From positions 47,386,814 to 47,450,813 of the forward strand of contig NC_057719.1 of assembly GCF_004010195.1 (NCBI RefSeq): DNA of 64,000 bases, written 5' to 3'. The position numbers were made by a program, and so were the translations under genes. Below, piece after piece: positions 934 to 50,710 of the stretch. Each line of letters starts with the position of its first letter. Positions within the stretch are counted from its first letter, which is position 1. The stretch comes from Chiloscyllium plagiosum (taxonomy: Eukaryota). Under the pieces are notes generated by a model that did not search any database, was not told the DNA's origin, and saw only the letters and a program-made list of their open reading frames with translations.

Positions 934-1146
934 AGTCTACCTATCGCATTTCCAACGCCCCTCCCCCAAGTCCCTCCTCCTTACCTTTTACCTTAGCCTG
1001 CTTGGCACACTTTCCTCATTCCTGAAGAAGGGCTCATGCCCGAAATGTCGATTCTCCTGCTCCTTGGATGCTGCCTGACCTGCTGCGCTTTTCCAGCATC
1101 ACATTTTCAGCTCTGATCTCCAGCATCTGCAGTCCTCACTTTCTCC
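934..1146 (+). mobile_element. Penelope-like element terminal repeat (3' end), non-coding, with hammerhead motif
   Basis: Same sequence as the 3' part of the GIY-YIG-bearing copies at 10741-11648 and 36224-36944; ends ...CAGCATCTGCAGTCCTCACTTTCTCC. Confidence 0.8.
1022..1049 (+). ncRNA. Minimal type I hammerhead ribozyme motif (core intact)
   Basis: CTGAAGA-A-GGGC-TCAT-GCCC-GAAA-T-GTC: CUGANGA and GAAA boxes, 4-bp stem II, GUC triplet; loopless stem III, weak stem I. Confidence 0.7.
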
Positions 1147-1149
1147 ATG

Positions 1150-1900
1150 TTCAAATACAACAAGATCCACACAATATTCAGGCTTGGGCTGACAAGTGGC
1201 AGATAACAACATTCGAGTCAGGCAATGAGACAATTTAACCACCACCCCTTGCCATTCAATGGTATTACCATCAATAAATCCCCCCAATACCAATATTCTG
1301 GTGTTATTATTGGCCAGAAACTCAACTGGACTCACCATATAATTATAAGGTCGGGTCAGAGGTTAAGAATACTATAGTGATTAACTCACCTCCTGACTCC
1401 CCAAAGCCTGTCCACCATCTAGAAAACATAAATCAAGAGTGTAATTCACTTCACGTGACTGGATAATTGCAGCTCCACAACACTCAAGAAGCTTGACACC
1501 ATCCAGAACAAAGCAGCCAAACATTTTGCTACTCCCACCACCACAAGTCTCAGTAGCAGCTGTGTGTACTACCTACAAGGTGCACTGCAGAAATTTGCCA
1601 AAGATCCTTAGACAGCATCTTGCAAATCCACCACCATTTCCATCTAGAAAGACAACAGAAATAGATACATTAGATCACCACCACCTGCAAGTTCCTCTCC
1701 AAGCCACTTGCCATTCTGACTTGGAAATAGATCACCATTTCATCACTGTTGCTGAGTCAAAATGCTGGAATTCCCTCCTTAACAGAATTGTTGGTCTACC
1801 TACAGTACATGAAGCTGCAATGGTTAATGAAGACAGTTCACCATCACCTTCTCAAGGGTAACTAGGGACAGGGAATAAATGCCCAGCCAGTGACACTTAT
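1150..1900 (+). mobile_element. Old CR1/L2-clade LINE 3' fragment
   Basis: Decayed RT C-terminal region (NIQAWADKWQIT-like at ~1172-1210); same family as 5325-6070 (-) and 35700-37320 (+). Confidence 0.65.
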
Positions 1901-2214
1901 ACCAACAAGGGAATTTTAAAAAAAATAAACCGTAAGAATGTCTTACCTTGTCAAAACTCATAATCATGCAAAAATATAGAGCCATTCTAACAAATTTACA
2001 AGACTGATTGACGAATTTTCATATTAACTTAATTATACTAGTGTTTGAGCTTCTGAATCAATTAGGTCATTGATTATTTTCATACTGATTGCATAGAAAT
2101 TGATTTGAAATGGAACATCGAAGTGTAACATGCTCAAGGACAAACATTCATTATCAATTGTATGTTCATTTTGTTTAATTCTGTGCAAGTGGTGGGCATT
2201 TTCTTAAGTTCCAT

Positions 2215-3258: not shown

Positions 3259-3874
3259 CCTATAAGTATATTTGTTAGATATTTATAATATTTAACTCTA
3301 AATTAATATGTGTGTAAAACTCCAGTTTAATTGTTTACCAACAACATTTTTATATTAGAATATAGTGAAAGACAAAAACTTTGACCTTGTATCTTCTTTT
3401 AGCATTGCTTAGAACATAGTAGCAGAGAATGTGTGCCTAAAGACACAGTTTGGAAACAACAACAAAAATCAGACAGCTACAATCCTATTGGCCACTGTGA
3501 CATTTTACAGTTTTCCCTCTAACCCTTATCAACCCCGTGCCAATAAGATTTATGTGAACTGTCAGAGAATGATTATCCTCTAATCACACGGTTTAGATTT
3601 CATGGAAGAACAAAGTGGACATGTGGACATAGGTTATGCCTGTTTTAAAGAGGAAAAGGAACAGGATGTCAGTGTTGCTGCTTACTATCAGAAGTAGTTT
3701 GTGACTTAGATATCTATGAATTAGACTGTGATGAGTGTTTCAATCTTGTACACTAAATATTAACTGAAGTTTACAAGAAAGATGATCTGATACTTTTTAT
3801 GGTGAACCTTTGTAATAATTTTCATAAAATGGATGGCAGTTCAATGAAGGTATGTTTGAGGACTTTAATAGATT

Positions 3875-3970
3875 TGACAAAGGGTCAGTTAGACTCGAAA
3901 TGTCAGCTCTTTTCTCTCCTTGCAGATGCTGCCAGACCTGCTAAGATTTTCCAGCATTTTCTCTTTTGGT
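3875..3970 (+). mobile_element. Short HHR-bearing PLE-type insertion (family 2)
   Basis: 11-bp TSD TTTAATAGATT (3864-3874 / 3971-3981); matches the element at 13920-14095; TTGACAA-A-GGGTC-AGTTA-GACTC-GAAA-T-GTC motif at 3874-3904. Confidence 0.75.
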
Positions 3971-5324
3971 TTTAATAGATTGTGTTCAACTGACAGAATC
4001 CAATTTGGTGATCCCTGGATTAGTACTGGTGTTAAATTGCAGACAGGCTGCTTCTTTTAACTGGTATTCATTTCTCAGGAAGGAAAACCGTGTTGGATCA
4101 GATGCTTGCTGTCTTTACAAAATTCCTGCATGGAACAAATAGGACATTATGCAGTGAAGCAAAGAAAAGAGGATTCAATGATTGTCAGATTTTGCCAAGG
4201 GCCAAATATTGCACTCGAGTGTCAATATAATGGAATGGTTAAAGACGGGAAGAACGCAAATGAAATCATCCTTGGAAAATTTGTCTCTTTATAGCAGAAG
4301 TTGAATTGGAGCAACAATGAAAGGGAAATCGCTATTACAAACAGTTAGTAGATGCATTAGGTGTGGTTCAAAATTTATTGGAATGAATTGCTCACAGCAG
4401 AGAGACATGGTCTCCAAAATGACAGTGGATGATTTTATTGATCACAAGGGATGTTAGTCTTCTGAAGAATGTGTTAATTGCAGGCTAGTTTAACTGTACA
4501 GTGCTAGATAGCACTTGCATTTTGATAGCAAGTGGAATGTATTAGTTAAAACATTATCTTGATTCACAAAGTAATGAGGATAGGTGCATGTTTATAGAAT
4601 ATAAAAGTACTACTTGTTTCATATTTAGCGATAATAATACATTGAGGTCATTTATGAGAGTATATCTTTCTATGTAAAATGGAGTGAGGCATTCGATAGC
4701 TATTGCTGCTGTTTTTAGTGTGATGCCAATTTTGCTGATTAAACCTGTGAAAAAGGGAAGAGAAGATTGACAAATTTATTTTAGAATGTCAGTAAAACTG
4801 GAATATTTGCATTCTGAACAATATTGTATCACGTCTTTTTTTAAAAAAAGTCACTAATTGCAATGTTAGACAAGTCTCATTGGTTTCTGGTTGATAAGGA
4901 TTAGAGACAAAACTGTAAAATGTCTTAGAATTACACAGATAATTTGCTCACATTACATACCAAAGGTTAACATCTTGTTAAAAGATGCAGGTTTCGTTAA
5001 TGAAGAGTTAAGAAGGCTAATAAATCCATTGGCACATAATTATTAATGAGGCAATTGTCATTGATCTAAGGGTCTGATCAAAGACCAAGGTCATCCACAT
5101 TTTACAGACCCAATAATCAGACTCTATGATAATAGTTATTAAGGGCAAAAGGGTTGAAAAGATCATGGAGAAATAGAATGAGCTTCAAACATTGGGCACC
5201 AAAAGTTCCTGACTGATGATAAAGGGGAATTTGGCAATAACTAGTTCAGAGATGTATAATAAGATATAAACACTTGGTCTTGTATTGTGCAGTTGAAAGG
5301 TTTTAAAAAATTATTTTATTTGAT

Positions 5325-6070
5325 ATGAGCATCACTGGCAAGGCCAACATTAATTGTTCACCCTCAATTCTCCTTCAAATGGTCACAGAAAAAGACCCTT
5401 CTTTGAACTGTTCCAGTCCATTTTGTGTAGGTATATCTGCAGTGCCATTAGGAAGGAGTTCCAGGATTTTGATCAAGCAATGTGAAAAAATAGTAATGTA
5501 GTTCCAAATCAAGATGATATGTGGCTTGAAGGGGAATTGTCAGGTGATGTAATGTTTTGCATCTGCTGCTTTCGTCTATATAGATGGTAGATGTCACAGG
5601 TTTGGAATGTGCCATCAAAAGATTCTTGAGGAGTGGTTTGACCAGAGCGTTATAGAGCCTCAGAAGTACATCCCTGTTTTTATATTCAAGCTTCTGGTCC
5701 TTGGTAATCTCCTAGGCATTGATGGTGATCAATTCAACAGTGGTGTTGTTGACTGTCAACAGAAGATGATTTAGTTTCTCTATCTGGACATAATCATTGT
5801 CTATTACATATAATACTTGACATTTATCAGTCTAAGCCTGAATATTGTTCTAGTCTTGGTATATCTGGTGTTGGACCACATCAGTGTTTGAGGAGTTGTG
5901 AGTGGCACAGAGCACTGTGCAAGAATCAACTAACATCTCTACTTCTGACCTTGTGTTTGAGGGAAAGACATTGATGAGACAGCTGAAGGTAGTTCCACCT
6001 AGGAATCTACACGTAGGAACTCCTGCTGTGTTTGTCTTGAGTTGAGATAACTTCTAACAACTACAATCAT
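5325..6070 (-). mobile_element. Old CR1/L2-clade LINE 3' fragment
   Basis: Reverse-complement similarity to 1150-1900. Confidence 0.6.
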
Positions 6071-6074
6071 CATC

Positions 6075-6421
6075 ACCCAATGTGTGAAAATATTGTCCCT
6101 TATGTCACTTTTATATTTTTCCCCTCTCAACTTAAACCTATGCACTCTAGTTTTGGACTCCCCTACCCTGAGGAAAGACCTTGGCTGTTCACCCTATCCA
6201 TGCTCCTCGTGATCTTATAAACCTCTATAATGTCACCCTTCAGTTTCCGAGACTTCAGGAAAAATAGCTGCAGCCTATTCAGCCTCTCCCTATAGCTCAA
6301 ACTCTCCAGCTCTGGCAACATCCTTGTAAACCTTTTCTGCACTCTTTCAAGTTTAACAACATCTTTCCTATAGCAGTAAGCCCAGAAATGAATGCAATAT
6401 TCCAAACGTGGCCTGACCAAT
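6075..6421 (-). mobile_element. CR1 (HER1-like) LINE ORF2 C-terminal fragment
   Basis: ORF 6163-6435: LVRPRLEYCIHFW...RKDVVKLERVQKRFTRMLP. Confidence 0.9.
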
Positions 6422-7907
6422 GAAGTTTTGGCCACTTTTCTTCTACCCGAAACAGTTTGATTTTTAAAAACCAGGAATTTACAAGAGCTAAGGGGTGTGT
6501 TGGATGGCAGTTATAGGAAGGGAGAAAAGCCATAATTACAGTCAAGTAGATGGGTTAACTTCAAGAAAGGTAGAAGAGGTAGGCGGGTAGTCCAGGAGTC
6601 TTCTGTGGCTATCCCCATTTCAAACAAGTATGCTCTTTTGGAAAATGTAGGGGGTGATGGACTTTCAGGGGAATGTAGCACGACCAGCCAAGTTTCTGGT
6701 ATCAAGACAGGCTCTAATGTAATGAGGGGCACATCAGGTTCCAAGGGATCAATTGTGTTAGGGGACTGTCTAGTCAGGGACACAGGCAGACATTTCTGTG
6801 GCCAGCAGCAAAAAAGCAGAATGGTGTGTTGCCTCCCTGGGGCCAAGATCAAGGATGTCTCAGAGAGGGTGCAGAATGTTCTCACGGGGGAGAGGGACCA
6901 GCAGGAGGTCATTGTCCACATTGGTACTAACGACATAGGAAGGGAAAAGAATGAGATTCTGAAGTGAGAATGTAGGAGGTTAGGCAGGAATTTAAAAAGG
7001 AAGTCCTCGGGGGTAGTAATATCTGGATTACTCCCGGTGCTACAAGCTAGTGAGGGCAGGAATAGGAGGATAGAGCAGATGAATACGTGGCTGAGGAGCT
7101 GGTGTATGGGAGAAGGATTCACATTTTTGGATCATTGGAATCTCTTCTGGGGTAGAAGTGACCTGTACAAGGAGGATGGATTGAACTGAACCTGAACTGA
7201 ACTGAACTGGAAGGGCATCTGAACTGGAAGGGGACTAATTTACTGACAGGGAGAATTGCAAGAGCTGCTTAGGAGGATTTAAACTATAACAGTGGAGGGG
7301 GGAAACCAGCAAGATTGTGAGAAAAGAGATCAATCTGAGACTGGTACAGTTGAGATCAGAAGCGAGTCAAACAATCAGGGCAGGCAGGGATAAAGCAGAG
7401 AACAAGGTAGGACTGATAAATTAAACTGCATTTATTTCAATGCAAAAGGCCTAATAGAGAAAGCAGATGAACTCAGGGCATGGTTAGGAACATGGGACAG
7501 GGATATCATAGCAATTACAGAAACGTGGCTCAGGGATGGAATAAATTGGTAGCTCAATGTTCCAGGATACAAATGCTAGGGGGGGCAGGAGAGGAGGGGG
7601 TGTGGCGTTTTTTATAAGGGATATCATTACAGCTGTGTTGAGGGAGTATATTCCCGGAAATACGTCCAGGGAAGTTATTTGGGCGGAACTGAGAAATAAG
7701 AAAGGGATGATCACCAAATTGGGATTGTATTCTAGACTGCCTAATAGTCAGCGGGAAACTGCAAAACAAATTTGTAAGGAGATTTCAGTTATCGGTAAGA
7801 ATAATAGGCTGGTTATGGTAGGGGATTTTATCTTTCCAAACATAGACTGGGACTGTCATAGTGTTAAGGGTTTAGATCAGGAGGAATTTGTTAAGTGTGT
7901 GCAAGAC

Positions 7908-8549
7908 AATTTTCTGATTCAGTATGTGGATGTACCTACCAGAGAAAGTGCAAAATTTGACCTACTCTTGGGAAATAAGGCAGGGCAGGTGACTGAGGTG
8001 TCAGTGGGGGAGCACGTTGGGGCCAACGACCATATTTCTATTCGTTTTAAGATAGTGATGGAAAAGGATAGACCAGATCTAAAAATTGAAGTTCTAAATT
8101 TGAGAAAGGCCAATTTTGACGATATTAGGCAATAACTTTCAAAAGCTGATTGGGTGCAGATGTTCACAGGTAAAGGGACGGCTGGAAAATGGGAAGCCTT
8201 CAGAAATGAGAGAACAAGAGTCCAGAGAAATTTTCTGATTCAGTATGTGGATGTACCTACCAGAGAAAGTGCAAAATTTGACCTACTCTTGGGAAATAAG
8301 GCAGGGCAGGTGACTGAGGTGTCAGTGGGGGAGCACGTTGGGGCCAGCGACCATATTTCTATTCGTTTTAAAATAGTGATGGAAAAGGATAGACCAGATC
8401 TAAAAGTTGAAGTTCGAAATTTGAGAAAGGCCAATTTTGACGGTATTAGGCAATAACTTTCAAAAGCTGATTGGGTGCAGATGTTCACAGGTAAAGGGAC
8501 GGCTGGAAAATGGGAAGCCTTCAGAAATGAGAGAACAAGAGTCCAGAGA
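7908..8549 (+). repeat. 321-bp direct tandem duplication inside CR1 ORF2
   Basis: 7908-8228 and 8229-8549, about 5 differences by eye. Confidence 0.95.
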
Positions 8550-9038
8550 CAGTATATTCCTGTCAGGGTGAAAGGTAGGTGTAGTGAATGCTGGATCACT
8601 CGAGAAATTGAGGGTTTAGTGAAGAAAAAGAAGGAAGCATATGTCAGGTATAGAAAGGAGAGATAGAGTGAATCCTTAGAAGAGTATAAAGGAAGTAGGA
8701 GTATACTTAAGAGGGAAATCAGGAGGGCAAAATGGGGACATGAGATAGCTTTGGCAAATATTTAAGGAGAATCCAAAGGGTTTTTACAAATACATTAAGG
8801 ACAAAAGGGTAAATAGGGAGGGAATAGGGCCCCTCAAAGATCAGCAAGGCGGCCTTTGTGTGGAGCCATAGGAGATGGGGGAGATACTAAATGAATATTT
8901 TGCATCAGTGTTTACTGCAGAGAAGGGCATGGAAGATATAGAATATGGGGAAATAGATGGTGACATCTTGAAAAATGTCCATATTACAGGGAGGAAATGC
9001 ATAAAGGTGGATAAATCCGCAAGATCTGATCAGCTGTA

Positions 9039-9091
9039 AATATGTTGCTGGAAAAGCGCAGCAGGTCAGGCAGCATCCAGCGATCAGGAGA
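9039..9091 (-). mobile_element. 53-bp PLE terminal-repeat fragment inserted in CR1
   Basis: 10-bp TSD ATCAGCTGTA (9029-9038 / 9092-9101); reverse complement matches ~1053-1105. Confidence 0.85.
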
Positions 9092-10740
9092 ATCAGCTGT
9101 ACCCTAGGATTCTGTGGGAAGCTAGGGAGGTGATTGCTGGGACCCTTGCTGAAATATTTGTATCATCTATAGTCACAGGTGAGGTGCCGGAAGAATGGTG
9201 GTTGGCTAACATGGTACCATTTTTTAAGATAGGTGGTAAGGAACTATAGACCAGTGAGCCTGATGTCAGTTATGGGTAATTTGTTGGAGGGTATCCTGGG
9301 GGACAGGATTTACATGCATTTGGAAAGTCAGGGACTTATCAGGGATAGTCAACATGGCTTTGTGCGTGGGAAATCATGTCTCGTGAACTTGATTGAGTTT
9401 TTTGGAAAAGTAACAAAGAGGATTGATGAGGGCAGAGTGGTGGATGTGATCTTCAGTAAGGCATTTGACACGGTTCCCCATGGGAGACTGGTTAGCAAGG
9501 TTAGATCTCATGGAATACAGGGAGAACTAGCCATTTAAATACAGAACTGGCTCGAAGGTAGAAGAGGGAGGGTGATGGTGGAGCTTTGTTTTTCAGACTG
9601 GAGGCCTGTGACCAGTGGAGTGCCACAAGGATCGGTGCTGGGACCACTACTTTTCATCATTTATTTGACTTTGAACGTTGGAGGTACAGTTAGTAAGTTT
9701 GCAGATGACACCAAAATTGGACATGTAGTGGATAGCAAAGAAGGTTACCTCAGATTACAATGGGATCTTGATCAGTTGGGCCAATGGGCTGAGAAGTCGC
9801 AGATGAAGTTTAATTTAAATAAATGCGAGGTGCTGCATTTTGGGAAAGCACATCTTAGCAGGATTATACACTTAATGGCACAGTCCTAAGGAGTATTTCT
9901 GAACAAAGAGACCTTGGAGTACTGGTGCATAGCTCCTTGAAAGTGGAGTCACAGGTAGATAGGATAGTGAAGAAGGCGTTTGGTATGGTTTCCTTTATTG
10001 GTCAGAGTATTGTGTACAGAAGTTGGGAGGTCATGCTGCAGCTGTAAAGGACGTTGATTAAGTCACTTTTGGAATTTTACGTACAGTTCTGGTCTCCCTC
10101 CTATCGGAAAGATGTTGTGAAACTTGAAAGGGTTCAGAAAAGATTTACAAGGATGTTGCCAGGGTTGGAGGATTTGAGTTATAGGGTGAGGCTGAATGAG
10201 CTGGGGCTGTTTTCCCTGGAGCGTCGAAGGATTAGGAGTGACCTTTTGGAGGCTTATAGAGCGTGTCTAGGATAAATAGACAAAGCCTTTTCCCTGGGTT
10301 GGGGGAGTCCAGAACTAGAAAGCATAGGTGTAGGGTGAGAGGTGAAAGATATAGGAGTCCTAAAGGGCAATGTTTTCACGCAGAGAGTGGTGTGTGTATA
10401 GAATGAGCTGCCGGAGGATGTGGTGGATGCTGATACAATTGCACAATTTAAAAGGCATATGGATCGGTATATGAATAGGAAAGGTTTCGAGGGATATGGG
10501 CCAAGTGCTGGCGAATGGGGCTAGATTGGGTTGGAATATCTGTTTGTCATGGATAATTTGGACCAAGGGGTCTGTTTCCATGCTGTACATCTCTATGAGT
10601 CTATTTGACCCAATTGACAAGTTTCTAGTGCACGTAACTTATGTTTAATTTGTCCCTGGCATCAGATGTTAGCTCTTAATTACCAATATTCCTAAGTAAT
10701 AGAATTATAATATGGCCAGACACCTTATTGGTTATGTATT

Positions 10741-11648
10741 CACACACTCAACAAACGCTTTTTCTCCACCATATCAGATGCCACCACGAGGGGTATACTT
10801 CCCTCCACGTCCCTATCAGCCTTTTGGAGAGTCCATCCCATCCACAGCTTCCTTGTCAGATCCACTCTGCCCACACCAGCCCTCACCCCACTCCGGCACC
10901 TTCCCCTGCCACCGCAGGAAGTGTAAAACCTGCACCCACACCTCCCCCCCTCACCTTCGTCCAAGGCCCCAAAGCACCCTTCCACACCTGACTGAAATTT
11001 ACTTGTACCTCCACTAATGTTATCTACTGTATCCGTTGGACCCGATGTGGACTCCTCTACACTGGGGAGACAGGACACCAACTTGTGGATCATTTTAGAG
11101 AACATCTCTGGCACACCCGCATCAACCAGCCCCACCGCCCTGTGACTGAACACTTTAACTCCCCATCCCACTCCACCAAGGAGATGCAGGTCCTGGGCCT
11201 CCTCCTCCAAACCTAACCACTCGACACTGGAGGAAGAACGCCTCATCTTCCGCCTTGGGACTCTGCAACCACACGGGATTAATGTGGATTTCACCAATTT
11301 CCTCATTTCCCCTCCTCCCACCTTATCCCAGTCCCAAGCCTTCAACTCGGCACCGCCCTGTGGACCTGTCCTTCACCTTTCCCATCTATCCGCTCTAGCC
11401 TCCTATCCGACCTATCATCTTCCCAACCACTTTCATCTACCTATTGCATTCTCAGCTACCCTCCCCCAGCCCTAACCCCCCTGCNNNNNNNNNNNNNNNN
11501 NNNNNNACCCACAAGCCTCATTCCTGATGAAGGGCTTATGCCCAACACAAGGATTCTCCTGCTCCTCAGATGCTGCCTGACTGGCCCTGCTTTTCCAGCA
11601 CCACATTCTTGACTCTGATTTCCAGTATCTGCAGCCCTCACTTTCTCC
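10741..11648 (+). mobile_element. 5'-truncated Penelope-like element (GIY-YIG endonuclease remnant + terminal repeat)
   Basis: PCHRRKCKTC linker, NVIYCI...LYTGETG, VTEHFNSPSHS, EERLIFRLGTLQPHGINVDF; decayed HHR at 11524; possible TSD TATGTATT. Confidence 0.9.
11485..11506. other. Assembly gap (22 N)
   Basis: Run of N within a C-rich PLE tract. Confidence 1.
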
Positions 11649-13919: not shown

Positions 13920-14095
13920 CCCCAAAAGAGAAAATGCTGGAAAATCTCAGCAGGTCTGGCAGCATCTGTAAGGAGAGAAAAGAGCTGACATTTCAAGTCT
14001 AGCTGACCCTTTGTCAAAGCTGGTCAGACCTGCTGAGATTTTCCAGCATTTTCTCTTTTGGTTTCAGATTCCAGCATCCGCAGTAATTTGCTTTT
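13920..14095. mobile_element. Fold-back HHR-bearing mini-element (family 2)
   Basis: 14-bp TSD ATTACTTTCCTTGA (13906-13919 / 14096-14109); perfect 37-bp inverted arms 13922-13958 / 14025-14061. Confidence 0.85.
13983..14021 (-). ncRNA. Minimal hammerhead ribozyme motif, U3-A8 variant
   Basis: Minus strand: AGCT-TTGACAA-A-GGGTC-AGCTA-GACTT-GAAA-T-GTC-AGCT (4-bp stem I AGCT/AGCT). Confidence 0.6.
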
Positions 14096-15730
14096 ATTAC
14101 TTTCCTTGATTGCTTTCTGCACTTGTCTGTGATATTTTAAAGATCTATGTACCTGAAACGCCAAGTCTCTTTGGACATCCACGACATTTAACTTCATGTA
14201 TTTACAATGTACCCTGATACATTCTTTTGCAGTCCAAATTGGATAATTTTACACTTGCTTATGTTGAACTCCATCTGCCACAGTTTGCCTATTCACTTAG
14301 TCCATCAATATCCTTTTGTAACTTTATGCTATCATCTACACTATCGACAATGCCACCTACCTTTGTGTCATCAGCAAATTTGGATATATGACTTTCTATG
14401 CCATTATTCAAGTCATTAATAAATAGCGTGAATAACTAAGGCCCTAACACAGATCCTGCCAATTATCCCTATTTTCTATCCCCTATCACTCAAACAATTT
14501 CCTAGCCATATCAGTAAATTGATTAATTCCGTTAATTCCGTGGACTTGTACTTCAGTTAACAGACTCGTATATAGGACTTTATCAAATGCCTTCTGGAGG
14601 TCCATATCAACAATATTGATAGATATTCCCTGACCACTACTTTAGTGAACATTTTGTGGCTGCCAATAAACTTGAAGATAAACAAATAAGAGGGACAAAA
14701 AAAGGAAGTTAGATGTTTGGAGCTTATTCTGATGTACCGGATGAAAGTAACCAACGGATGAAAGTAACCAACCTTGTTACCTAGATGGATCAGTGCTGAA
14801 AATGCCTTTGCTAGTGGGATTTATAAGTCTGAAGTGAAGCTCCTTGCTAAGAGGTGTATGCTAATAATGTGTAACTCTTAATAAATATATAAAGGTAGCT
14901 CCAGTTTTATCCTTCAGCAACTGGGTTTCTGGAGTAAAACATGTTATTGTGGCTTGCAATGTCATTTGAACCTCAGACAAGAAAGATATTGTCTTATATT
15001 GTTCTTTAGTGTGGCCTTTTAAATAGGCAAGCATTGAGTAGGGTCCTTCTCCTGCATGGCAATTTACTATTTCAAATTGATTTTTTAGCTTTCCCCTTGC
15101 TTAACTTTGTACATACACTTGCGGCTATACTTGTTGTTTCAAAGCCATAACAGTCGGAAGATTCCAGAAATGAACTCCTCCAAGGCTCTTTTCAACACTA
15201 AGCTGCCCATATGTGAGAGCTCAGTAGCTATTGTAGCCTGTCAGCATAACCTACATTTTCTTCATGACATTTTTTGTACATTTAACTTAGACTTTCTCAT
15301 CTCTTCCTGACCTGAATGTTGGTATTTTGTTCTTAATGGATAATCCATTTACAGTATTGTTCTTTTCTGCCATGTTGATACACTATATCCTGATTTTACT
15401 TTTCTCATTTGTCTGAATTTACAGTTGCTTTGCATTCACTTTGCATGCATGGATATTGTGAAGTAACACACTTATCATGACAAACAGAACATGACATTAC
15501 AGGGTGTTGGTCCAGCTACTCCAGTAAAGATATATGTTTTAGCCAACTGTCCAGAAAATTGGATGTGCACTGAATTTTAAAACTGGCCAAATTCTGTGTT
15601 GGTTTACAGCTGCCAACTTTACAAAAATATCTATATACATAATTAGGAGGCGCCGGTATTGGACTGGGCTGTACAAAGTTAAAAATCACACAACATCAGG
15701 TTATAGTCCAACAGATTTATTTGGAAGTAC

Positions 15731-15759
15731 TAGCTTTTGGAGCACTGCTCCTTCATCAG
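15731..15759 (-). ncRNA. Decayed minimal hammerhead motif in PLE terminal repeat
   Basis: Minus strand CTGATGA-A-GGAGC-AGT-GCTCC-AAAA-GCTA; perfect 5-bp stem II; GAAA to AAAA is consistent with CpG decay. Confidence 0.6.
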
Positions 15760-15907
15760 GTGGTTGTGGAAAGTAAGATTGTAAGATACAGAATTTATAG
15801 CAAAAGTTTACAGTGTGATATAACTGAAATTACCACATTGAAAAAGACCTGGATTGTTTGTTCAGTCTCTCATCTTTTAGAATGACTACATTGATTTCAG
15901 TTATTCA

Positions 15908-17503: not shown

Positions 17504-18223
17504 ATATGTAAATCGCAAAACTTTTTAAAACAAGTGAACGTTAACAATTGGTGTCATGTCAACCCAGATAATATATTGAAGGTGTAATCTTCCCTGTAAG
17601 GCTGTCTGTGCCACAATGATCAGACTGTTTCTAATCTAAAATATGGATTTACAGAATCTTACGTGGATTCATGCAGTTTTTGATGTAAAATGTAATTCTG
17701 CAAGCACAAATTCACCCCACAAACTTATACGTGTATGTGTGCATGTGTTTTTGGGGGGTATTGTTATGAGTGTTTGTGAGAGTGTGTGTATGTCTGTGAG
17801 AATGTATTGTGGGAATGTTTGAGAGAGGGTCTGCATGAGTGTGTGTGTCTGTAGGAGTGTGTATGTCTGTGCATGTGTATCTGTGTGTGTATCTGTTTGT
17901 GTGTGGGTACCCTTCGTTGTACAGTACAGGTACTTCCCAGGACCTGAAAAACTACGCCATGGTTTTTACAGCGTGCAACACATTATCAATGAGGATGATC
18001 ACCTCAGCAAGACCTTCCCCACACCTCCACTTCTCGCCTTTCAAAAGCCACCAAACCTCAAACAGATCATTGCTCATAGCAAACTGCCTGGCTCTCAGGA
18101 CAATACCATACAACCTTGTCATGGTAGATGCTGCAAGACGTGTCAGAATGTTGACACCGATGCCACCATTACGCGTGGAGACACCTCCCAAGATGTACGT
18201 GGCAGGTACTCATGTGACTCAGC

Positions 18224-18500
18224 AAGGCAAAAGTGAAGACTGCAGATGCTGGAAACCAGAGTTTAGATCAGAGTGGTGCTGGAAAAGCACAGCAGGTCAG
18301 GCAGCATCTGAGGAGTAGGAAAATCGACATTCGAGCAAAAGCCCTTCATCAGGAATAGAGGCAGGAAGCCTCCAGGGTGGAGAGACCCTGGAGGCTTCTT
18401 GCTTCTATTCCCGATGAAGGGCTTTTGCCTGAAATTCGATTTTCCTGCTCCTCGGATGCTGCCTGCCCTGCTGTGCTTTTCCAGCACCACTCTGATCTAA
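18224..18500. mobile_element. Fold-back HHR-bearing mini-element (family 1) inserted in PLE GIY-YIG ORF
   Basis: 16-bp TSD ACTCATGTGACTCAGC (18208-18223 / 18501-18516); ~120-bp arms 18259-18378 / 18385-18504 with 6-nt loop; decayed HHR in each arm. Confidence 0.9.
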
Positions 18501-20124
18501 ACTCATGTGACTCAGCCAATGTTGTCTATCTCATATGCTGCAGGCAAGGATGCCCTGAGGCATGGTGCATTGGCGAGACCAAGCAGAGGCTACAGCAACG
18601 GATGAATGGTCACTGCACAACAATCAACAGACAGGAGTGTTCCCTCCCAGTCCGAGAACACTTCAGTGGTCCGGGACATTTGACCTCGGACCTTCGGGTG
18701 ACTGCCCTCCAATTCGGGCTTCGGGACAGGCAACAACGAAAAGTGGCCGAGCAGAGGCTGTTAACCAAGTTTGATACCCATAGAGATGGCCTCAACTGGG
18801 ACTTTGGGTTCATGTCACACTACAGGTGACCCCATTGCACTATACACACACACAGACAGACAGACACTCTCTCCTACAGACACACACTCAAGCAGACCCT
18901 CTCTCATGCTCACACATACATTCTCACAATATGTTCTCACAGACTTATACCTGTTTACACTCACATACACACACTCTCTCACAGACACATAACACGTCCC
19001 CCACCCCCGCAAACACACACGCAAGTTTGTGGGGTGAATTTGCACTTGCAGAATTACATTTTAATTTGCTCAAAAACTGCATAAATCCATGTAAGATTCT
19101 ATAAATCCATCTTTTTAGATTAGAATCAGTCTGACCATTGTGGCACAGACATCCTTAACAGGGAAGCTCACACCTTCAATACATTATCTGGGCCGACAGG
19201 ACACCAATTTTTAAAGTTCACTTGAGAATGTAACTTTTTAAAAAAGGTTTTTCAATTTACATATGAAAGAACTGAAACCAACATGGTCATTCTAAAAGAC
19301 GAGAGACTTAACAAACAATCCAGTTTTTTTCCAATGTGGTAATTTCAGTTATATCACACTGTAAACTTTTGCTATAAATTCTGTGTCTTACAGTCTCATT
19401 CTCTCCAACCACCTGATGAAGGAGCGCCTGATGTTGGACTACAATCTGGTGTTGTATGACTTTTTAAACTTTATACGCACAGATATAGTTAAATAAAACT
19501 TATCTGCATTATAATTTCATTTTATTTCATTAAATCTTCTGAAGCCTTCAGAGTTCTGAAGGGGAACAAATAAGAATTTTACATGATGCATGCCACATGT
19601 ATTTTTGGGCATCAGTAATAAAAGTCACCACATCCCTGCCAGAACATTGGGCTAATCTCTCATGCCATAGACCTGAGTGGGGGTGGCTTGACACCTCAGC
19701 GATGGAAGAAGTTCAGAATTGAACCAACACTATTTGTGTCACTCTGCTTGGCAAACCAACCATCCAGCCAACTGACCTAACTGATTCCCATTACTTTGAG
19801 ATGTTAAATGCATTGTTTTTTAAATAGAACTTCGACCTATTCGTACATTATGTCAACTCCGTGGGGATGTGGAGCTTGAATGCAGGCCTTCTGACTTAAG
19901 GAACTGCTACACAGAAGCCCCCCAAATAAATTTTGATTCCACTTTGTGCAATGGTGGGATTCAACTGACACCCTCCCCCCCACCCCACATGTCGGCAGCG
20001 AATCGGGCCAGTCTTCTGGGGGATTAACTAATGCAGTGACATGTCGACACGACCAGCAGCACAACCATTCTCCTGACACGATGTATTGGGGGGGGGGGGA
20101 ATTGTGAGGCCCAGGTCACGTGCT

Positions 20125-20478: not shown

Positions 20479-20638
20479 AGGTAAAAACGATGACTGCAGA
20501 TGCTGGAAACCAGATTCTGGATGAGTGGTGCTGGAAGAGCACAGCAGTTCAGGCAGCATCCGAGGAGCAGTGAAATCGACGAGGGCTTTTGCTCCTCGGA
20601 TGCTGCCTGAACTGCTGTGCTCTTCCAGCACCACTAAT
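20479..20638. mobile_element. Fold-back mini-element (family 1) inside the CpG island
   Basis: 15-bp TSD CCGGTAAATGTGTGT (20464-20478 / 20639-20653); 51-bp arms 20519-20569 / 20590-20640 with one mismatch. Confidence 0.9.
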
Positions 20639-26550: not shown

Positions 26551-28044
26551 GTGGACTTTGTGGAGGTATTACCACGGGCAATGAACTAGGGAATGGTTAA
26601 TTGACCAAATTGTTTGAATTTAAATTAGACAGCTTAATTTGCATATGTTCAGTGCCTAATCTACAGGGAATATTGCAGTGACTACTATTGGAATGAACGT
26701 AGTGTCAATTGTTTAAGTTTGAATCTGATTCAATGAAAAGGCTAGTAATTGACTGCTTAAAATATTCAAGCTTTTCTAGGTTGTGAATATTCAACAGAAA
26801 AACACTAGCTCTGACCTTTGGGATCATCGTTTGGGGTGATGGATGTTTGTCTGTAGATGTCTGTCAATTATTTTGGGGAAGGTATCTTTTGTTGTTTTTT
26901 TTTAAAATACTGTGATATCTTTGATGTGAATGCTTTTTGTGTTGTGACTTTAAGATTAATGGTGTGATTTAATTATTCTGAAGGACCAAATACATCACTT
27001 TCAGCATATGTTGGCAGTTACAATGTGATATCACAATATAGAAAGAAAGTTGGTAAGAATGTAAAAGCAGTACCTAAAATTTAAAACTCAGAGCATTCCA
27101 AAATCTCTCTCAAGTGCTATATAGTGACAACACAAATGGCATTCTCTACTAATTGGATGCGGCAGTCAAGGAAAAAAGATGTTCTGCTTGCTGCACCAGT
27201 AAGTTTTATATGGCAAATCAACTTCAGTGGCCGTTTAATGCAGTATGTGTAGGCTGTGCATGTCAACAATTAGTGGATTATATTAAGTAACAAATCCCTT
27301 TTGTTGACTACCAGGTAAAGTACTAATCTTACTCAACAAATCTTTGCTTGCAAAATTCAGAATGAAGCTAGGTGTCCATTTCTGTGTCATGGAAGGTTTC
27401 ACTCTGAATCTAGCAAGTTATCTTGTGCAATTCTCTGCTGTTCACCTCATTATATATGCACTATGCCTTTTACAATGCTATGCTCGCACTCGCCAGCAGT
27501 GGAAATACTTGACACTCCAAGAATTTCAGGATTTCTGGCACTTTTTTTTTGACGTCTTTCTTGCACCTGGTCAGATGCTGCCAGCCACAAGCCGCAGTAG
27601 ATGTGGTGAAGGGCAAATAAAAAAAACAAAAGCTTCTGAGTACATATAGGTGGTTTTGGTTGCACTTCATTGGAAATAAAATTACATCAGTAAATGTATG
27701 GCCAGTTAACATCATCTGTCTGATTTAACTGTCATTGTAAGAATGATGTTGCAGTGGTTATCCATTGTTAGTACCTACCATGTTGAACCCTATCAGATAT
27801 AGGCTACTTTTTTTACTGAATGCAGATTGTAGTACATCATCTTGTCATTGTTCAGTGTGAGAGCACTGTGCTGTAAAGTCTTCAGTTATATTGTTTGCTT
27901 TGCTGTTGAACAATAATTAAGAAGCAAACAAAAAGCCACATTTGCTCCTGGGACTATACAAGAAAATCTACCTTTGTTAAAAGACTTTGGCAAACAATAA
28001 TACTTTCTGAGCAGTTAATGTATTCACTCAAAAGTAAATTCTTT

Positions 28045-28235
28045 TGGATGTTAGAAATCTGAAATAAAAACTAAGTGCTGGAGAAACTCTGCAGATCTGG
28101 CAGCAACTGTGATGAGAAACCATTATTTCTTTGAATATGTTCTGAAGAGTCCTGTTCGACGTGGTATTAACTTTGTTTCTGTCTTCACATTTGCTCCCAT
28201 ACCTTCTGAGTCTATTCAGTGCTTTCTGTTCTCTT
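28045..28235. mobile_element. Old decayed fold-back element related to the HHR mini-elements
   Basis: GTGCTGGAGAAACTCTGCAGATCTGGCAGCA left arm, central TTCTGAAGA, degenerate complementary right arm. Confidence 0.5.
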
Positions 28236-29329: not shown

Positions 29330-29540
29330 ATTCATGGCACATGATTCAGGGCATGTACTGGTGGAATTTGTAGGGAGAGAAGCTGAGTTAATGATTCAGG
29401 TCTATAACTGTTCACTGGTTCTGATGAAAGGTCAGAGGCCTGAACTATCAATTCTTGTGTTCTGTAGATGTTGCCACACTAGCTTCGATTTGAGCATTTT
29501 CTGTGTATGGCTTTCCAGTATCTGCAGTATTTTGTTTGGA
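29330..29540. mobile_element. Old decayed fold-back element with HHR remnant
   Basis: CTGATGA-A-AGGTC-AGA-GGCCT-GAAC at 29421-29445; tail TTCCAGTATCTGCAGTATTTTG. Confidence 0.55.
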
Positions 29541-32290: not shown

Positions 32291-32564
32291 AATAGTATAA
32301 AACAAAGAACTATGTTTCAGGTGTTCAGCATCCAAGTAGCACATTTCTGGAGAAACTCAGCAGGTCTGGCAGCATCTGTGGAGAGAAGATGGAGTTGATG
32401 TTTCAGAATTTCTGAAGAAGGATCACTGGACTCTGGAGAGAAAACAGTTAACTCTTAGAGTCCAGTGACCCTTCTTCAGAAGTTCTGAAACATCAACTCC
32501 ATCTTCTCTGCACAGATGCTGCAAGACCTGCTGAATATCTCCAGCAATTTTGGTTTTTGTTTAT
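32291..32564. mobile_element. Fold-back HHR-derived mini-element (family 3)
   Basis: 88-bp arms 32347-32434 / 32457-32544; CTGAAGAAGG(A/G)TCACTGGACTC in both arms; degenerate TSD AACAACCTGGTAA / AACAGCATGGTGA. Confidence 0.75.
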
Positions 32565-36223: not shown

Positions 36224-36944
36224 AGGGAGAAAGTGAGAACTGCAGATGCTGGAGATCAGAGTCAAAAGGTGTGGTGCTGGAAAAGCACAGCTGGTCAGGC
36301 AGCATCTGAGGAGCAGGAGAGTCCTAATTTCGAGCATAAGCTTTTTATCAGGAATGTGGGGGTGGCCCAACGGGGCTGAGATAAATGGGGTGGGGGGAGG
36401 GGGTGGAGAAGGTAGTTGGAAATGTGATAGGTAGATGAAGGTGGGGGAGGGGTGTGATGGAGCAGAGGGTGGGAAAGATGATGGACAGGTAGGACAGATC
36501 TAACCCTCCAACTCTGTATTGCCCTCTTGAACTGTCCAGATTCTAGCCACCCGACACCTAGAAGAAGATTGCCTCATCTTCTGTCTTGGCACCTTCCAAC
36601 TCCATGAGATCAACGAGATTTCACCAGTTTCCTCATCTCCCCTCCCTCCACCTTTTTTATCCCAGATCCAACCCTCCAACTCGGCATGGCCCTCTTGAAC
36701 TGTCCTACCTGTCCATCTTTTTTCCCACCTATACGCTCCACCCTCCACTCTGACCTATCACCAATACTCCCTATCTTCATCTATCTGTTGCATTCCCAGT
36801 TACCTTCCCGCCAGCCCCTCCCATTTATCTCTCAAACCCTTTGGGCCTCCTCCACATTTCTGAAGAGCGTCTGTGCGAAACGTTGACTCTACTGCTCCTC
36901 GGATGCTGCCTGACGAGCTGTGCTTTTCCAGCACCGCATGTTTT
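36224..36944 (+). mobile_element. Penelope-like 3' fragment with inverted upstream terminal repeat
   Basis: Left arm 36224-36499 is inverted relative to ~36690-36944; LEEDCLIFCLGTFQLHEIN remnant of the PLE ORF end; degenerate 16-bp TSD 36208-36223 / 36945-36960. Confidence 0.85.
36860..36884 (+). ncRNA. Minimal hammerhead motif
   Basis: CTGAAGA-GCG-TCTG-TGC-GAAAC-GTT; palindromic ACGT stem III. Confidence 0.55.
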
Positions 36945-37339
36945 GCATGTATCGTTTGGGTGACACAAGTGTCAGGTATTGGCCATCTCCAGTAAGTGAG
37001 TCTAGCCTAGCCTCTTGATAACTAATGGTATCTCCATCAATGAAGCCATCAACATCCTGGGTGCTACCATTGAATACAAACCGAACTGAACTATTTATGT
37101 AAGAATTGTAGCTGCAAGAGCAGGTCAGAGGCTCAGGAATTATGCAGCAAGTAACTCCTTTCTCGATTTTCCCCAAAGCCTAACCATTGTCTACATGGTA
37201 AGTCAGAAGTGTGATGTACTCCTAACTTGCCTGGATGTTGATGAAATTGTACATACTCAAGAAGCTTGAAAGCATCAAGGTCAAAGCAGCCCACTTGGTT
37301 TGGCACCACAGCAAACATCTGATGTTGGACATCTTAAAA

Positions 37340-44046: not shown

Positions 44047-44175
44047 CATAGAGTCAGAGATGTACAGCATAGAAACAGATCCTTCAGTCCAACCCGTCCA
44101 TGCCAATCAGACATCCCAACACATTCTAGTCCCACCTGACAGCACCCGGTCCATATCCCTCCAAACCCTTCCTAT
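44047..44175 (-). mobile_element. CR1 3' tail fragment
   Basis: Reverse complement of the 3' UTR of 37907-38844. Confidence 0.9.
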
Positions 44176-46648: not shown

Positions 46649-46916
46649 TTGATTAGATTAGATTACTTAGTGTGGAAACAGGCCCTTCTGTTAACTAAGA
46701 CTGCCATGAATACAATAGTGAGAAATGACATTAATTCAAAAGAACAAGATGTAGAATAATTAGGTTGTATTAAAATTCTAGCTGCTGTTAGTCCTGGATA
46801 AATCAGATCTGAATGCAACTTGACTTAATAGTTTTATTTAATTCTGAAGGTACAAGAGGTTGCTGTTCTTTATAACACAGAATAAAACATCTTTTAAGCA
46901 AGAAATACATAAGTTA

Positions 46917-47043
46917 TTAGATTAGATTACATTACAGTGTGGAAACAGGCCCTTCGGCCCAACAAGTCCACACCGACCCGCCGAAGCGAAACCCACCCAT
47001 ACCCCTACATTTACCCCTTACTTAACACTACGGGCAATTTAGT
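46917..47043 (-). mobile_element. HE1-like SINE 3' fragment
   Basis: TTAGATTAGATT tail + CAGTGTGGAAACAGGCCCTTCGGCCC; a shorter piece lies at 46651-46689. Confidence 0.8.
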
Positions 47044-47135
47044 ACCAGTAGTATTCTTCCAACCATTCAAACTTCCATGAAGCTTTGTCACTATTTTCAC
47101 ATGAAGGCTACTTGCCCAGTCTCAAGTTGGTACAG

Positions 47136-47503
47136 ATACCATTGGTTTCCTTTTGATGAATTTCTGTACAGTCACTAAATGCTATTTTCCCATCATTTGG
47201 TGGCTCTCCCCACAACACTTAAAACAATTGTAATGAAATTCATTCAGACTTTAACTTTGGAGTGACTACGTAAGTTTATTGCACTGTGACCAGTACTCCC
47301 TTGCTCTGTGGCATACACAAAACTGTCTGGTTCACCTTTTTGGAGCATTCTGCTTTTGTCACTACTTATGTAGTCACTCCAAAGTTAAAGTCTGAATGAA
47401 TTTCATTACAATTGTTTTAAGTGTTGTGGGGAGAGCCACCAAATGATGGGAAAATAGCATTTAGTGACTGTACAGAAATTTATCAAAAGGAAACCAATGG
47501 TAT
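47136..47503. repeat. 140-bp near-perfect inverted repeat with 88-bp spacer
   Basis: Arms 47136-47275 and 47364-47503, 2 mismatches. Confidence 0.95.
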
Positions 47504-48316
47504 GTCATTGGGCAACTGTCACTATGCAAAAATAGCTTCTTTTGGTCTCTATAATTTTAATTTTACATACGTTGAACAGTTCAACTCAAAGGTTGAAACC
47601 TCTGTGCTTTTTAAAAAAAAAGAAAAACAAAACAGCCCATCAGATCACTGAAAAATGAAACTAAATAATGTCTTACTCTTAAACAATCAAAATCTAAAAC
47701 ATGTTCAACTTGTATTCAAGTTGATGTATTCTTAATACCTCTTGGCAGGAAAAAAGTAAAAATATGCTTGAGACATTTTTCAATTACATTCTGTTATTTT
47801 TATTTTACTTATTCTAATATTACCAATGTACTCTTCATCAAACACAGACTTTTTTTAAATAAAAATTGCAACCTACAAAGTCTACAAAAACCTATTTTTA
47901 TCACATTAGATTTTGTCCATATTTTCTCCTGGTAAAGCATCAGAGCTTATTATTTGTCTTTTCTTGCTATGCAGTTTGTATCATTTTAGCATTAAACTCC
48001 AATGGACAAATCTTAGATTTTACGGTATGGAAGTTTTCTTGATAGTTAATGGATTTTCATCTGTCAATAACAGTCACTGTAGAGTAATTAGCTACTTGGC
48101 TTTCAAAATATTCTAAAACCACCCCCAAACTCAGTCTTTTTTTTTCTACAGTTGAGTATTTCTGCTGGCACATATTCAACTTTGAGAAAAGTAACTGACT
48201 AGCCATTTGATAATTTTGTCCCATCATAACACAGCACCAACATCAATGTTACTGTCATCAACAGCCAGTTTAGGTGACTTTGCTTAACTTATAAATAAGG
48301 CTTTTTTTTTTTTTTT

Positions 48317-50710
48317 GAGAAGATTTTGTGTGCTCAGGTTGAGGTTCTCGATATGGGCTTGTTAGCTGAGCTCGAAGGTTCGTTTTCAGACGTTCTGTCA
48401 CCATACTAGGTAACAACCTCAGTGAGCCTCCGGATGGAACACTGGTGGTGTAGCCCGCTTTCTATTTATATGTTTGGGTTTCCTGGGATTGGTGATGTCA
48501 TTTCCGGTGATGTTATTTCCCATTTTTTTTCCCAGGGTGTGGTAAATGGGATCCAACTTGATATGTTTGTTGATAGAGTTCCTGTTGGAATGCAATGCTT
48601 CTAGGAATTCTCGTGCGTGTTTCTGTTTGACTTGTCCTAGGATGAATGTGTTGTCCTAGTCAGTGGTGTTCTTCCTCCTCTGTAAGGATACGAATGAGAG
48701 AGGGTCATGTCTTTTTGTGGCTAGCTTTCTGGCTGTTTGTCCAATGTAGTGTTTGTTACAGTTCTTGCAAGGTGTTTTATAAATGACATTAGTTTTGCTT
48801 GTCGTCTGTATAGGGTCTTTCAAGTTCATTAGCTGCTATTTTGTGTTTTTGGATTTGTGGGTTACCATGATGCCAAGGGGTCCAAATAGTCTGGCAGTCA
48901 TTCCTGAGATGCCTTTGTAGGGGAGTGTGGCTAGGGTTTCTGGATGTGTTTTGTCTGCTTGTTTGGGTTTGTTGCTGAGAATGCCAAACTGTTTTCATTG
49001 GGTACCTATTCTTTTCAAATACACTGTATAGGTGATTTTCCTCTGTTCTGCGTAGTTCCTCTGTGCTGCAGTGTGGTGGTTCGTTGAAATGTTGTAATGC
49101 AGTTTTGTTTGTGGATGTTGGGATAATTGCTTATGTAGTTCAGTATTTGGTCCGTATGTGTTGTTTTCCTGTAGACGCTGGTTTGAAATTCCCCATTGGC
49201 TGTTCTGTCTACTGTGATATTTAGGAATGGCAGTTTGTTGTTTTTTTCCTCTTTTTAGTGCATTTTATGCCAGTAAGGGTATTATTGATGGTCTTGAAGG
49301 TTTCCTTTAATTTGTTTCGTTTAGTGATGACAAAGGTGTCATCCATGTAGCAGACCAAAGTTTGGGTTGGATGGTTGGCAGAGCTGTTTGTTAGAGTCTC
49401 TGCATTACTGCCTCTGCTAAGAACCCATATTGGAGATCCCATGGTGTTCTGTTGGTTTATTTGTAGGTTTTGTTTTTTAAGGTGAAGTGGGTGGTAAGGC
49501 ATAAGTCCACTAGCTTGATGATGTCCTTGCTGATGAAGTTGGTGGTGTTTGGTGTATGTGTCTTTGGTTCCTCTAATAGTGTAGTCAGTATTTCCTTGGT
49601 CAGGTTGATGTTGATGGATGTGAACAGGGCTGTTACATCAAAGGAGACCATTACTTCATCCCCTTCTATCTTGGTGTCTTTTGTCTTCAGAAATTCTTGG
49701 GTGGAGTGGATGGAGTGGCATGAGTGTTCTAAGTGTTTTAGTCCTTGGTGTAGCTCCTTGGCCAATCTGTAAGTTGGTGTTCCAGGTAGTGAGACTGTGA
49801 GAGTCTGAGTGGGGCTCCTGGTTTGTGAATTTTGGGTAATCCATAGAAGTGTGGTGTTGGATCCATCTGGTTTTGTTTTTTTGGAAGTGAGTCTTATTTA
49901 TTTCTGGAATTCTGAAGTTTGGTTTTGAGTAGGGTTGTGATTCAGTTCTCTAGTTGTGGTGTCTGGTCTGTAGCCACTTCTTGCTAAATGTTGATACCTG
50001 CAAGTAGTGCATTCACTTTATCAATGTAGTTTTTTTGATTTAAATGACTCAAGTGTCCTTTGTCTGCAGGTAGGATAACAATGTTTTTATCTTTCTAGGG
50101 CTTTCCTTTCTTGTGTATTGTGTGTGCTTCCTTTTTTTCCTGCTTAATGTTGGTGCAGCTGCCTGTCTGATGGTTTGCTGTGTTTCTTTTGTTAGTTGGT
50201 TGTCTTTCAGTGTTGTTTCTAATGCTGCTAAGATTTTTTTTGCCTGCATCCTGGAGGTTGTAATTTAATCCTCTCACCTAAGACTGCTTTTTCGGTGTCT
50301 GTTAAGGGTCAGTCATATAAGGTTTTATTCATCCTTCTATGTAGTCAGAATTTGTTTTTTGTGTAAGTTTTTTTTTGTCTACTTTGACCCACACTCACTA
50401 GTATCCTTACGTACGGATGAGGAAAGATACCACTATGGGATAAAACATTCATCCGAGCCAAACAGAGACATGCAAGAGAATTCCTAGAAGCATGGCATTC
50501 CATTCGGAACTCTATCAACAACCAATTGACTTGGATCCCATTTACACCCCCCCCCGCCCGAGGAAAAATAGGAAATGTTGTCACCACAGAAAATGACATC
50601 ACCAACCCAAGGAAACCCAAACATAGAAAGCAGGCTACTCTACCAGTACTTCCTCTAGAGGCTCACTGAAGATGTTACCTAGTATGGTGACACAGCCGTT
50701 TGAAACAAAC
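48317..50710 (-). mobile_element. Decayed Penelope/Poseidon-type element (RT + GIY-YIG) with inverted 5' segment 50385-50710
   Basis: Minus strand VMVSFDVTALFTSI, LVDLCLTTHF, MGSPI, YMDDTFVI; the C-terminal segment is repeated in inverted orientation (reads AREFLEAWHS on + at ~50470-50500); decayed HHR CTGAAGA-T-GTTACC-TAGTAT-GGTGAC at 50666. Confidence 0.9.

Follow-up and report, generated by a model that had tools for sequence, protein, structure and literature searches.

The window analysed here is a stretch of 64,000 nt from the 3.56-Gb genome of Chiloscyllium plagiosum (contig NC_057719.1, positions 47,386,814 to 47,450,813), and it is rich in repeats, namely Penelope-like elements (PLEs) and reverse transcriptase (RT) fragments of the long interspersed nuclear element (LINE) type. 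Among them lie short insertions that carry hammerhead ribozyme motifs and are often built as hairpins. These mini-elements are best explained as very short insertions of ordinary Neptune-type PLEs, likely made anew at each landing by twin priming and run-off at the 5' end of the RNA, a reading to which we give a probability of about two in three. A sequence-only reading of the window had instead proposed a population of retrozyme-like units. The observation behind that proposal is largely real, the retrozyme interpretation is not supported, and the PLE layout itself is known.

Every arm of a mini-element begins shortly upstream of the hammerhead and closes at either of two fixed 3' ends; full-length copies have this sequence as their front, where it holds the first ATG of the open reading frame (ORF). 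The insertions had been taken for short non-coding pieces of PLE repeat only; their terminal-repeat origin holds, but the arm includes that ATG and about 26 codons. In 20 long copies of family A (the letters A to E are labels of this analysis), the repeat was joined to the end of an ORF with RT motifs, a C-x4-C-x2-C linker and GIY-YIG-type motifs. The RT was confirmed by Pfam RVT_1 (E 4.7e-7), Pfam GIY-YIG matches on endonuclease fragments were weak (E 0.06-0.18) or absent, and a PDB sequence search with an endonuclease fragment gave a single irrelevant match. A C-x2-5-C-x2-C linker between RT and endonuclease is the layout described for the Neptune clade (PMC8557442), and linkers of this type were found in families A and D, which are Neptune-type PLEs by their sequence motifs; family B was classed with A by common 3' sequence only. 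An upstream walk showed that family A elements measure ~3.7 kb and that their front is the same repeat, entering the ORF from an ATG at +19 (the frame was read across broken copies; positions are relative to the predicted hammerhead cut, with -1 the last base before it). Five family A copies reached the element front: two partial tandems (L225, L235), one copy starting at -33/-32, one at about -24 and one near the cut (L229). The features expected of endonuclease-positive (EN+) PLEs were all found, including a single RT-endonuclease ORF contiguous with the repeat, a partial tandem or inverted pseudo-long terminal repeat (pLTR) with a tail, and a minimal hammerhead within the pLTR. Moreover, hairpin sizes formed a series from 119 to 2917 bp, and head-to-head inversions were also recognised by eye in 6 of the 20 long family A copies. 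The stubs thus represent the lower end of the PLE size series.

Hairpin architecture and arm ends

The census was based on 160 evenly spaced 10-kb stretches (1.6 Mb, including 54 kb of N). A total of 264 arms were anchored, 15 hits at edges or without an anchor were left out, and 247 arms belonged to family A at >=80% identity; the density was ~124 family A insertions per Mb, or ~4 x 10^5 if extrapolated to the genome. Within 3 kb, 61 head-to-head family A neighbours were recorded, and the 55 with a gap of <=70 nt or a target-site duplication (TSD) were accepted as hairpins. TSDs of 12-17 bp flanked 40 of these 55, compared with 0-1 when flanks were shuffled. Close pairs in 664 kb were head-to-head in 35 cases, same-direction in 2 and tail-to-tail in none, and both arms, read from the two target 3' ends, had cDNA polarity.

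The arms ended at two 3' positions, ~+62 and ~+97, which lie ~35 nt apart, and the longer version carries the tail (31-40 nt long in 34 of the 40 cases delimited by a TSD). Exactly one arm was tailed in 53/55 family A hairpins, in 11/11 further asymmetric ones, in 13/13 of family D and in 17/17 of family B, although an independent choice of end for each arm would give about half with two tails or none (p 3e-15 for 53/54). The tailless arm reached further 5' in 22 of 53 family A hairpins, the tailed arm in 11, both equally in 18, and two were unresolved; 16 of the 22 had a TSD, and the excess ran up to 120 nt. The corresponding numbers for family D were 5 tailless longer, 5 tailed longer and 3 equal. 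The tailless arm is also the longer one in window hairpins 13920 and 36226.

The two arms of a hairpin shared their subfamily in 45/49 cases, with a median likeness of 0.94 within hairpins and 0.85 between them. Chimeric arms from two different RNAs were considered, but the 4/49 discordant pairs rested on one-site diagnostics and were not convincing. Centres fell into 52 junction classes among the 55 randomly sampled hairpins. One class was seen three times and recurs by microhomology, because its tails sit on opposite arms in different copies. At the junction of the two cDNA ends (n=48), 19 hairpins had an overlap and 20 had short inserts. A replicating hairpin family was also considered, as many matches of equal length were retrieved (the query selected for length); it was rejected when the aligned centres of 25 hairpins like 18224 proved to differ.

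The 5' ends were placed against 37 subfamily references, since upstream subfamily differences confound the comparison, and only arms covering +22..+40 were counted. Of the 247 family A ends, 45 were at or above -100, 19 in -99..-39, 17 in -38..-34, 63 in -33..-29, 80 in -28..-1, 14 in +1..+5 and 9 in +6..+22. The peak falls on the A of an initiator-like motif; among 45 long arms, 29 show a TTTATC-like box 31-33 nt upstream of this A. In 39 of 45 short family A hairpins, the longer arm ended at -40..-26. Transcription starts typically lie ~30 nt below a TATA box, often at an initiator consensus. In family B, a single A that follows a canonical TATAAAT by 31 nt was the first base of 18 of the 39 top-scoring copies; in family D, 22 of 71 had their start above the stem I edge, at 29-34 nt below TATAAAT, and none from -41 to -15 of the core. 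The 5' limit thus lies 30-33 nt below a TATA or TATA-like box in three Neptune-type families of unlike sequence (A, B and D), and a full-length copy starts at the same place.

These results would fit the following reaction. The PLE endonuclease would make a staggered cut of ~15 bp; one nick would prime at the outer start site, at the tail end, and its counterpart would use the inner site of that RNA or of a sister molecule. Where the enzyme used start sites near the mRNA 5' end rather than their 3'-end copy, synthesis would end, as in strong-stop DNA, once the cDNA had reached the transcription start at a length of 85-130 nt. Microhomology or a few added bases would link the two cDNA ends, so that every hairpin would acquire a centre of its own, and loss of one cDNA would leave a single arm. 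The hammerhead would be carried along uncut, and the stubs, lacking the upstream TATA box, would likely be dead on arrival. A PLE protein from Anolis nicks and extends both strands in vitro, two internal starts bracket the tail, and ribozyme mutants insert normally (PMC11167929). We incline, with only slightly better than even confidence, to a more general statement: PLE integration would be an obligate two-sided reaction in which the nicks are primed coordinately at two internal sites, and most Neptune-type events would integrate strong-stop-like run-off cDNA, leaving ~10^5 stubs that map the transcription start, with the ribozyme usually uncut in the copied RNA. Coordinated priming at two sites would explain both the inverted pLTR and the one-sided tail.

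The hammerhead motifs themselves are genuine. A strict minimal type-I pattern gave 95 matches in the 1.6-Mb sample and 0, 0 and 0 in three shuffles; it matched once in the window, where the copies are decayed, and an Rfam scan of the window found no hammerhead family, only hairpin-driven microRNA (miRNA) matches under the gathering score. Intact minimal hammerheads numbered ~60 per Mb in the sampled stretches, or ~2 x 10^5 per genome by extrapolation. To compare families, the stem pairs were tabulated with the core as anchor. Stem I, of just 2-4 bp, is TC/GA, CAC/GTG, GCA/TGC or AGCT/AGCT and is mismatched in most family A subfamilies; stem II is paired over 3-5 bp with differing letters; and stem III is a loopless palindrome, as had been stated. 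Motifs had been assigned to about five families, and they do recur in several PLE families with differing stems I and II that stay paired, but the AGGTC/GGCCT motif at 29.4 kb is one decayed copy with no relative in the 1.6 Mb. Nor does a CTGANGA core serve for all: in the young family B (for example window 3875 and 14010-14021; loci L271-L309), which has a perfect palindromic 4-bp stem I, a U3-A8 pair replaces the C3-G8 core in 30 of 39 copies. This compensated pair suggests that the fold is still under selection.

In the full-length family A copies L238, L229 and L233, the predicted 5' untranslated region (UTR) of ~50 nt is almost all hammerhead. A ribozyme cut would take off the cap 18 nt before the ATG, and the ribozyme might be an off-switch for translation or copying. 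Additionally, a short ORF of 26 codons in another frame starts in the stem II loop of the family A pLTR, and after the ATG (window 1075-1150; L238) several motifs resembling 3' splice sites, with branch point, pyrimidine run and AG, can be read by eye in the same pLTR, the final one at the tail end.

Alternative explanations

The explanation from which this study started was that the mini-elements are non-autonomous retrozyme-like units, cut to length by their hammerheads and copied as hairpins or monomers. The hammerhead is conserved with compensating stems, and a preprint ties animal retrozymes to pLTRs (10.64898/2026.07.22.740005). Furthermore, the 14 of 247 arms starting at +1..+5 exceed the ~1 per position nearby, and both the window 9039 copy and the full-length L229 start near the cut; several of the +1..+5 cases are poor alignments or junctions in which stem I complementarity serves as microhomology, and it is possible that a minority of stubs, the 9039 copy among them, came from cut RNA. 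Against such units, only 3 of 247 family A arms begin exactly at the cut (+1) and no 3' end lies there: cutting to unit length had been proposed, but the 3' ends lie ~62 and ~97 nt beyond the cut and the 5' ends peak 31-32 nt before it. A unit replicating as such is likewise at odds with the 52 junction classes in 55 hairpins and the thrice-seen class with tails on opposite arms. At least one arm lacks the whole core in 31 of the 55 hairpins (24 have it in both arms), and the 68-87% arm-to-arm pairing predicted for a hairpin transcript would bury the ribozyme. Retrozymes are head-to-tail tandem units with limits set by the cleavage site, neither of which was found: the hairpins include no tandem arrays, and the same subfamilies run into the ORF within the size series given above. 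Retrozyme-like units are therefore quite unlikely. Less probable by far, and close to negligible, is an origin as miniature inverted-repeat transposable elements (MITEs) of a DNA transposon, which the short length, inverted ends and very high copy number would suggest; TSDs of 12-17 bp, arms asymmetric by ~35 nt, variable centres and a sequence contiguous with an RT ORF all contradict it. The sequence-only reading was right that the insertions look like MITEs without being DNA transposons, and its view that PLE enzymes mobilised them is upheld in that retrotransposition by the PLE machinery is supported.

The two remaining alternatives concern the reaction itself, and both appear improbable to a similar degree. 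Hairpins could arise by self-priming: one cDNA, or an antisense template as proposed in PMC3846280, would bend back and serve as its own template, and ordinary early truncation would account for the shortness. This published proposal accounts for the exclusively head-to-head polarity (35 close pairs against 0 tail-to-tail), for the near-identical arms and for the junction overlap in 19/48. Nevertheless, a fold-back copy of a tail-primed cDNA cannot outreach its template at the 5' side, as the tailless arm does in 22/53, nor can it gain a tail that its template lacks, and self-priming does not fit these hairpins without later deletion. Short arms that are almost wholly tail also occur, and self-priming explains neither why synthesis should stop 35 nt before the end nor why the 5' limit is sharp. 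Alternatively, twin priming could operate while the 5' pile-up marks RT stalled or released at a folded hammerhead or bound protein, not the end of the RNA. Such a stall is favoured by the position of the peak in families A and B, where it meets the front edge of stem I, by the 80 of 247 arms that start inside the motif and by the lack of a pile-up in the Poseidon-type family E. It is disfavoured by the family D limit, ~5 nt above stem I and tracking TATA+30, by a stem I of only 2-4 bp that is mismatched in most A subfamilies, by the distance of 30-33 nt below the box in three unlike families, and by a full-length copy that starts at this limit.

Several observations weigh against twin priming with run-off at the transcription start. 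The start is inferred from motifs and end pile-ups in the DNA, not from measured transcripts. The family A and B ends cluster right where stem I begins on its 5' side, so that a structural stop is possible there, and the family B palindrome at that spot could attract junctions. Family E has a canonical TATA box, but its ends do not pile up: of 30 tailed copies, 27 reach beyond the box and 3 start between TATA and core (by eye). The family B and E loci were top-scoring matches and not a random sample. A cap-derived extra G is weak (7/17 in A, one-sided p 0.027; 4/5 in D; 3/18 in B), and the Drosophila Penelope element has a TATA-less internal promoter (PMC2377424), which speaks against generality. 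With regard to architecture, the 22:11 ratio in favour of longer tailless arms does not differ significantly from 1:1 (p 0.08), arm lengths could be obscured where hairpin centres suffered later deletions, and two of the six rejected pairs (gap >70 nt, no TSD) were tail/tail. Of 113 short unpaired family A arms, 15 were clean single arms with a TSD, 11 were lopsided hairpins and 4 had other inserts, but the other 83 had no detectable TSD, most without an inverted partner, and are unexplained; a target-site deletion on loss of one cDNA would account for them. Reads of one poly(A) single-cell run of a similarly labelled species, compared together with several contig sets, speak neither for nor against run-off, because this library type cannot show starts or cuts; the reads came from both strands, 95% continued into differing sequence, and neither starts nor ends piled up among the matches listed.

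Features of the window

The PLE-derived features of the window are collected in the table. The five TSDs reported earlier were recovered to the base at 3875, 9039, 13920, 18224 and 20479 (10-16 bp), and a search for TSDs at 32291, 29330 and 28045 found none. Inverted dimers had been called the majority; 13920, 18224, 20479 and 32291 are indeed head-to-head hairpins, but these are only four of eight, as 3875 and 9039 are single arms and 29330 and 28045 are too decayed, with no inverted repeat detected. The copy at 15.6 kb had been counted as an ORF-bearing PLE and has a 3' UTR and pLTR only.

Table. PLE-derived features of the window (coordinates are window positions)
Feature	Position	Strand	Details
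Family A (Neptune-type PLE) 3' end with tail	936..1146	+	5'-truncated at about -115 from hammerhead cut; decayed hammerhead 1022-1049; TSD not found
Family B single tailless arm	3875..3970	+	begins in hammerhead core; 11-bp TSD 3864-3874 / 3971-3981
Family A single tailless arm	9039..9091	-	5' end <=~3 nt from predicted cut site, ambiguous with TSD; 10-bp TSD
Family A long copy	10775..11648	+	broken C-x4-C-x2-C linker, GIY-YIG-type endonuclease end, 3' UTR, hammerhead 11524, tail
Family B hairpin	13920..14095	both	long tailless arm (-) to ~14021, the predicted transcription start
Second arm of hairpin 13920..14095	14025-14095	+	short, tail-bearing; 14-bp TSD around hairpin
Family D (Neptune-type) 3' UTR and pLTR	15646..15905	-	hammerhead 15759, tail; without ORF
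Larger family D hairpin	17504..19476	both	inverted 3' part 17504-17892, then endonuclease remnant, 3' UTR, decayed pLTR
Family A hairpin	18224..18500	both	tailed arm (-) 18224-18378; tailless arm (+) 18385-18500; 16-bp TSD
Family A hairpin	20479..20638	both	neither arm with whole hammerhead; tail on - strand arm; 15-bp TSD
Old decayed arm related to families B/C	28030..28235	-	28030-28117 detected; second arm and TSD not detected
Single decayed hammerhead-like motif and PLE-like tail remnant	29330..29540	+	motif at 29421; inverted arm, TSD and relative not detected
Family C hairpin	32291..32564	both	arms 32343-32434 and 32457-32548, 92% complementary; TSD not found
Old family A hairpin	36226..36945	both	short tailed arm (-) 36226-36472; longer tailless arm (+) 36502-36945 with ORF C-terminal remnant
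Poseidon-type PLE	48273..50730	both	broken RT and endonuclease (-) 48384-49950; inverted 3'-part copy 50385-50705; hammerheads decayed

The hairpin at 18224 is nested in the ORF of the larger family D hairpin, within its endonuclease remnant. Both of its arms extend ~55 nt above the cut, and because they pass the predicted start site, this hairpin is an ordinary 5' truncation. Stubs of start-site length were likewise observed inside the ORFs of L229 and L238, and stubs often land in other PLE copies.

The window holds other repeats as well. A 140-bp inverted repeat at 47136-47503 (99% complementary, 88-bp spacer, no hammerhead) was single-copy in a genome search, with short weak relatives only, and is either an artefact of the assembly or a local inverted duplication of recent date. 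A tandem duplication of ~321 bp, 98% identical, occupies 7908-8528. A LINE-type RT family, unrelated to the PLE stubs, is present in several 5'-truncated copies (9220-10604, 16492-17505, 25638-26554, 37512-39715, 54242-55626 and 62060-62685).

Relation to known systems

The closest published layout is that of Pen2 and Pen2a, EN+ PLEs of Adineta vaga, which have an inverted 5'-truncated pLTR, a tail of 30-40 bp and a TSD (PMC3846280; scheme in PMC8557442; PMC8969392). The elements described here share with them the head-to-head inverted pLTR, the tail at one end, the TSD, and the first ORF codons and TATA- or initiator-like motifs within the pLTR; they differ in consisting mostly of the pLTR part alone (~120-300 bp), in their ~10^5 copies and in their sharp 5' limit. 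In the available text of PMC3846280 and PMC8557442, the inversion is attributed to endonuclease resolution or self-priming, and priming from both nicks is not invoked. Poseidon PAc of Anolis (PMC11167929) likewise has two internal RT start sites, which lie within the ORF start on either side of the tail. Its protein nicks both strands and extends them, and the hammerhead at the ORF start is dispensable for insertion. PAc belongs to another clade, however, and the parts of that report available to us describe no start-site difference between strands and no link of the sites to inverted repeats, whereas the hairpins here use one start per strand.

The minimal hammerheads resemble those of metazoan PLEs (PMC4209133) in the short stem I, the extra base before stem II, the loopless palindromic stem III and the U3-A8 variant. 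That study also describes many families per genome, opposite-strand motif pairs 100-700 bp apart and most copies ascribed to truncated PLEs. It reports 4,000-9,000 minimal hammerheads in coelacanth and Xenopus, found with another search pattern, in contrast to the ~2 x 10^5 intact motifs extrapolated here, and its accessible text names no shark. Animal non-LTR retrozymes (PMC7229834; 10.64898/2026.07.22.740005) are similar in being short, bearing a type I hammerhead, being related to pLTRs and having long TSDs. As described in these sources, they differ in forming head-to-tail tandem units with canonical active ribozymes and circular RNAs, whereas the elements here are head-to-head or single, carry minimal motifs and have their ends off the cut.

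More distant parallels are found outside the PLEs. In L1 twin priming, a second target nick primes a second cDNA, inverting a non-overlapping upstream piece, and retroviral strong-stop DNA is a short cDNA that runs off the RNA 5' end and is then transferred. The proposed PLE reaction has two-nick priming in common with the former and 5' run-off with the latter; it is distinct in that both cDNAs would cover the same stretch, giving a hairpin, and in that the short cDNA would be integrated. In the literature searched, from which most subscription papers, Repbase, Dfam and supplements lay outside, no paper on Penelope twin priming as a mechanism or on start-limited strong-stop stubs was found, and a prior description is possible. 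As far as their available text goes, PMC8557442, PMC3846280 and PMC11167929 call the mechanism of the inverted pLTRs, the one-sided tails and the role of the hammerhead open.

In conclusion, the inverted pLTR with tail and TSD and the minimal hammerheads are already published, and what the census adds is the mechanistic record, namely the one-tail rule, the often longer tailless arms and, in three Neptune-type families, 5' ends that stop ~30 nt below a TATA or TATA-like box. Stubs of this kind are apt to be mislabelled as MITEs, short interspersed nuclear elements or miRNA hairpins in repeat libraries. Twin priming with run-off makes two sharp, testable predictions, namely that every product has one start site per strand and that the cDNA runs off where the RNA is capped. 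The genome of C. plagiosum holds a very large fossil record of the PLE integration reaction.

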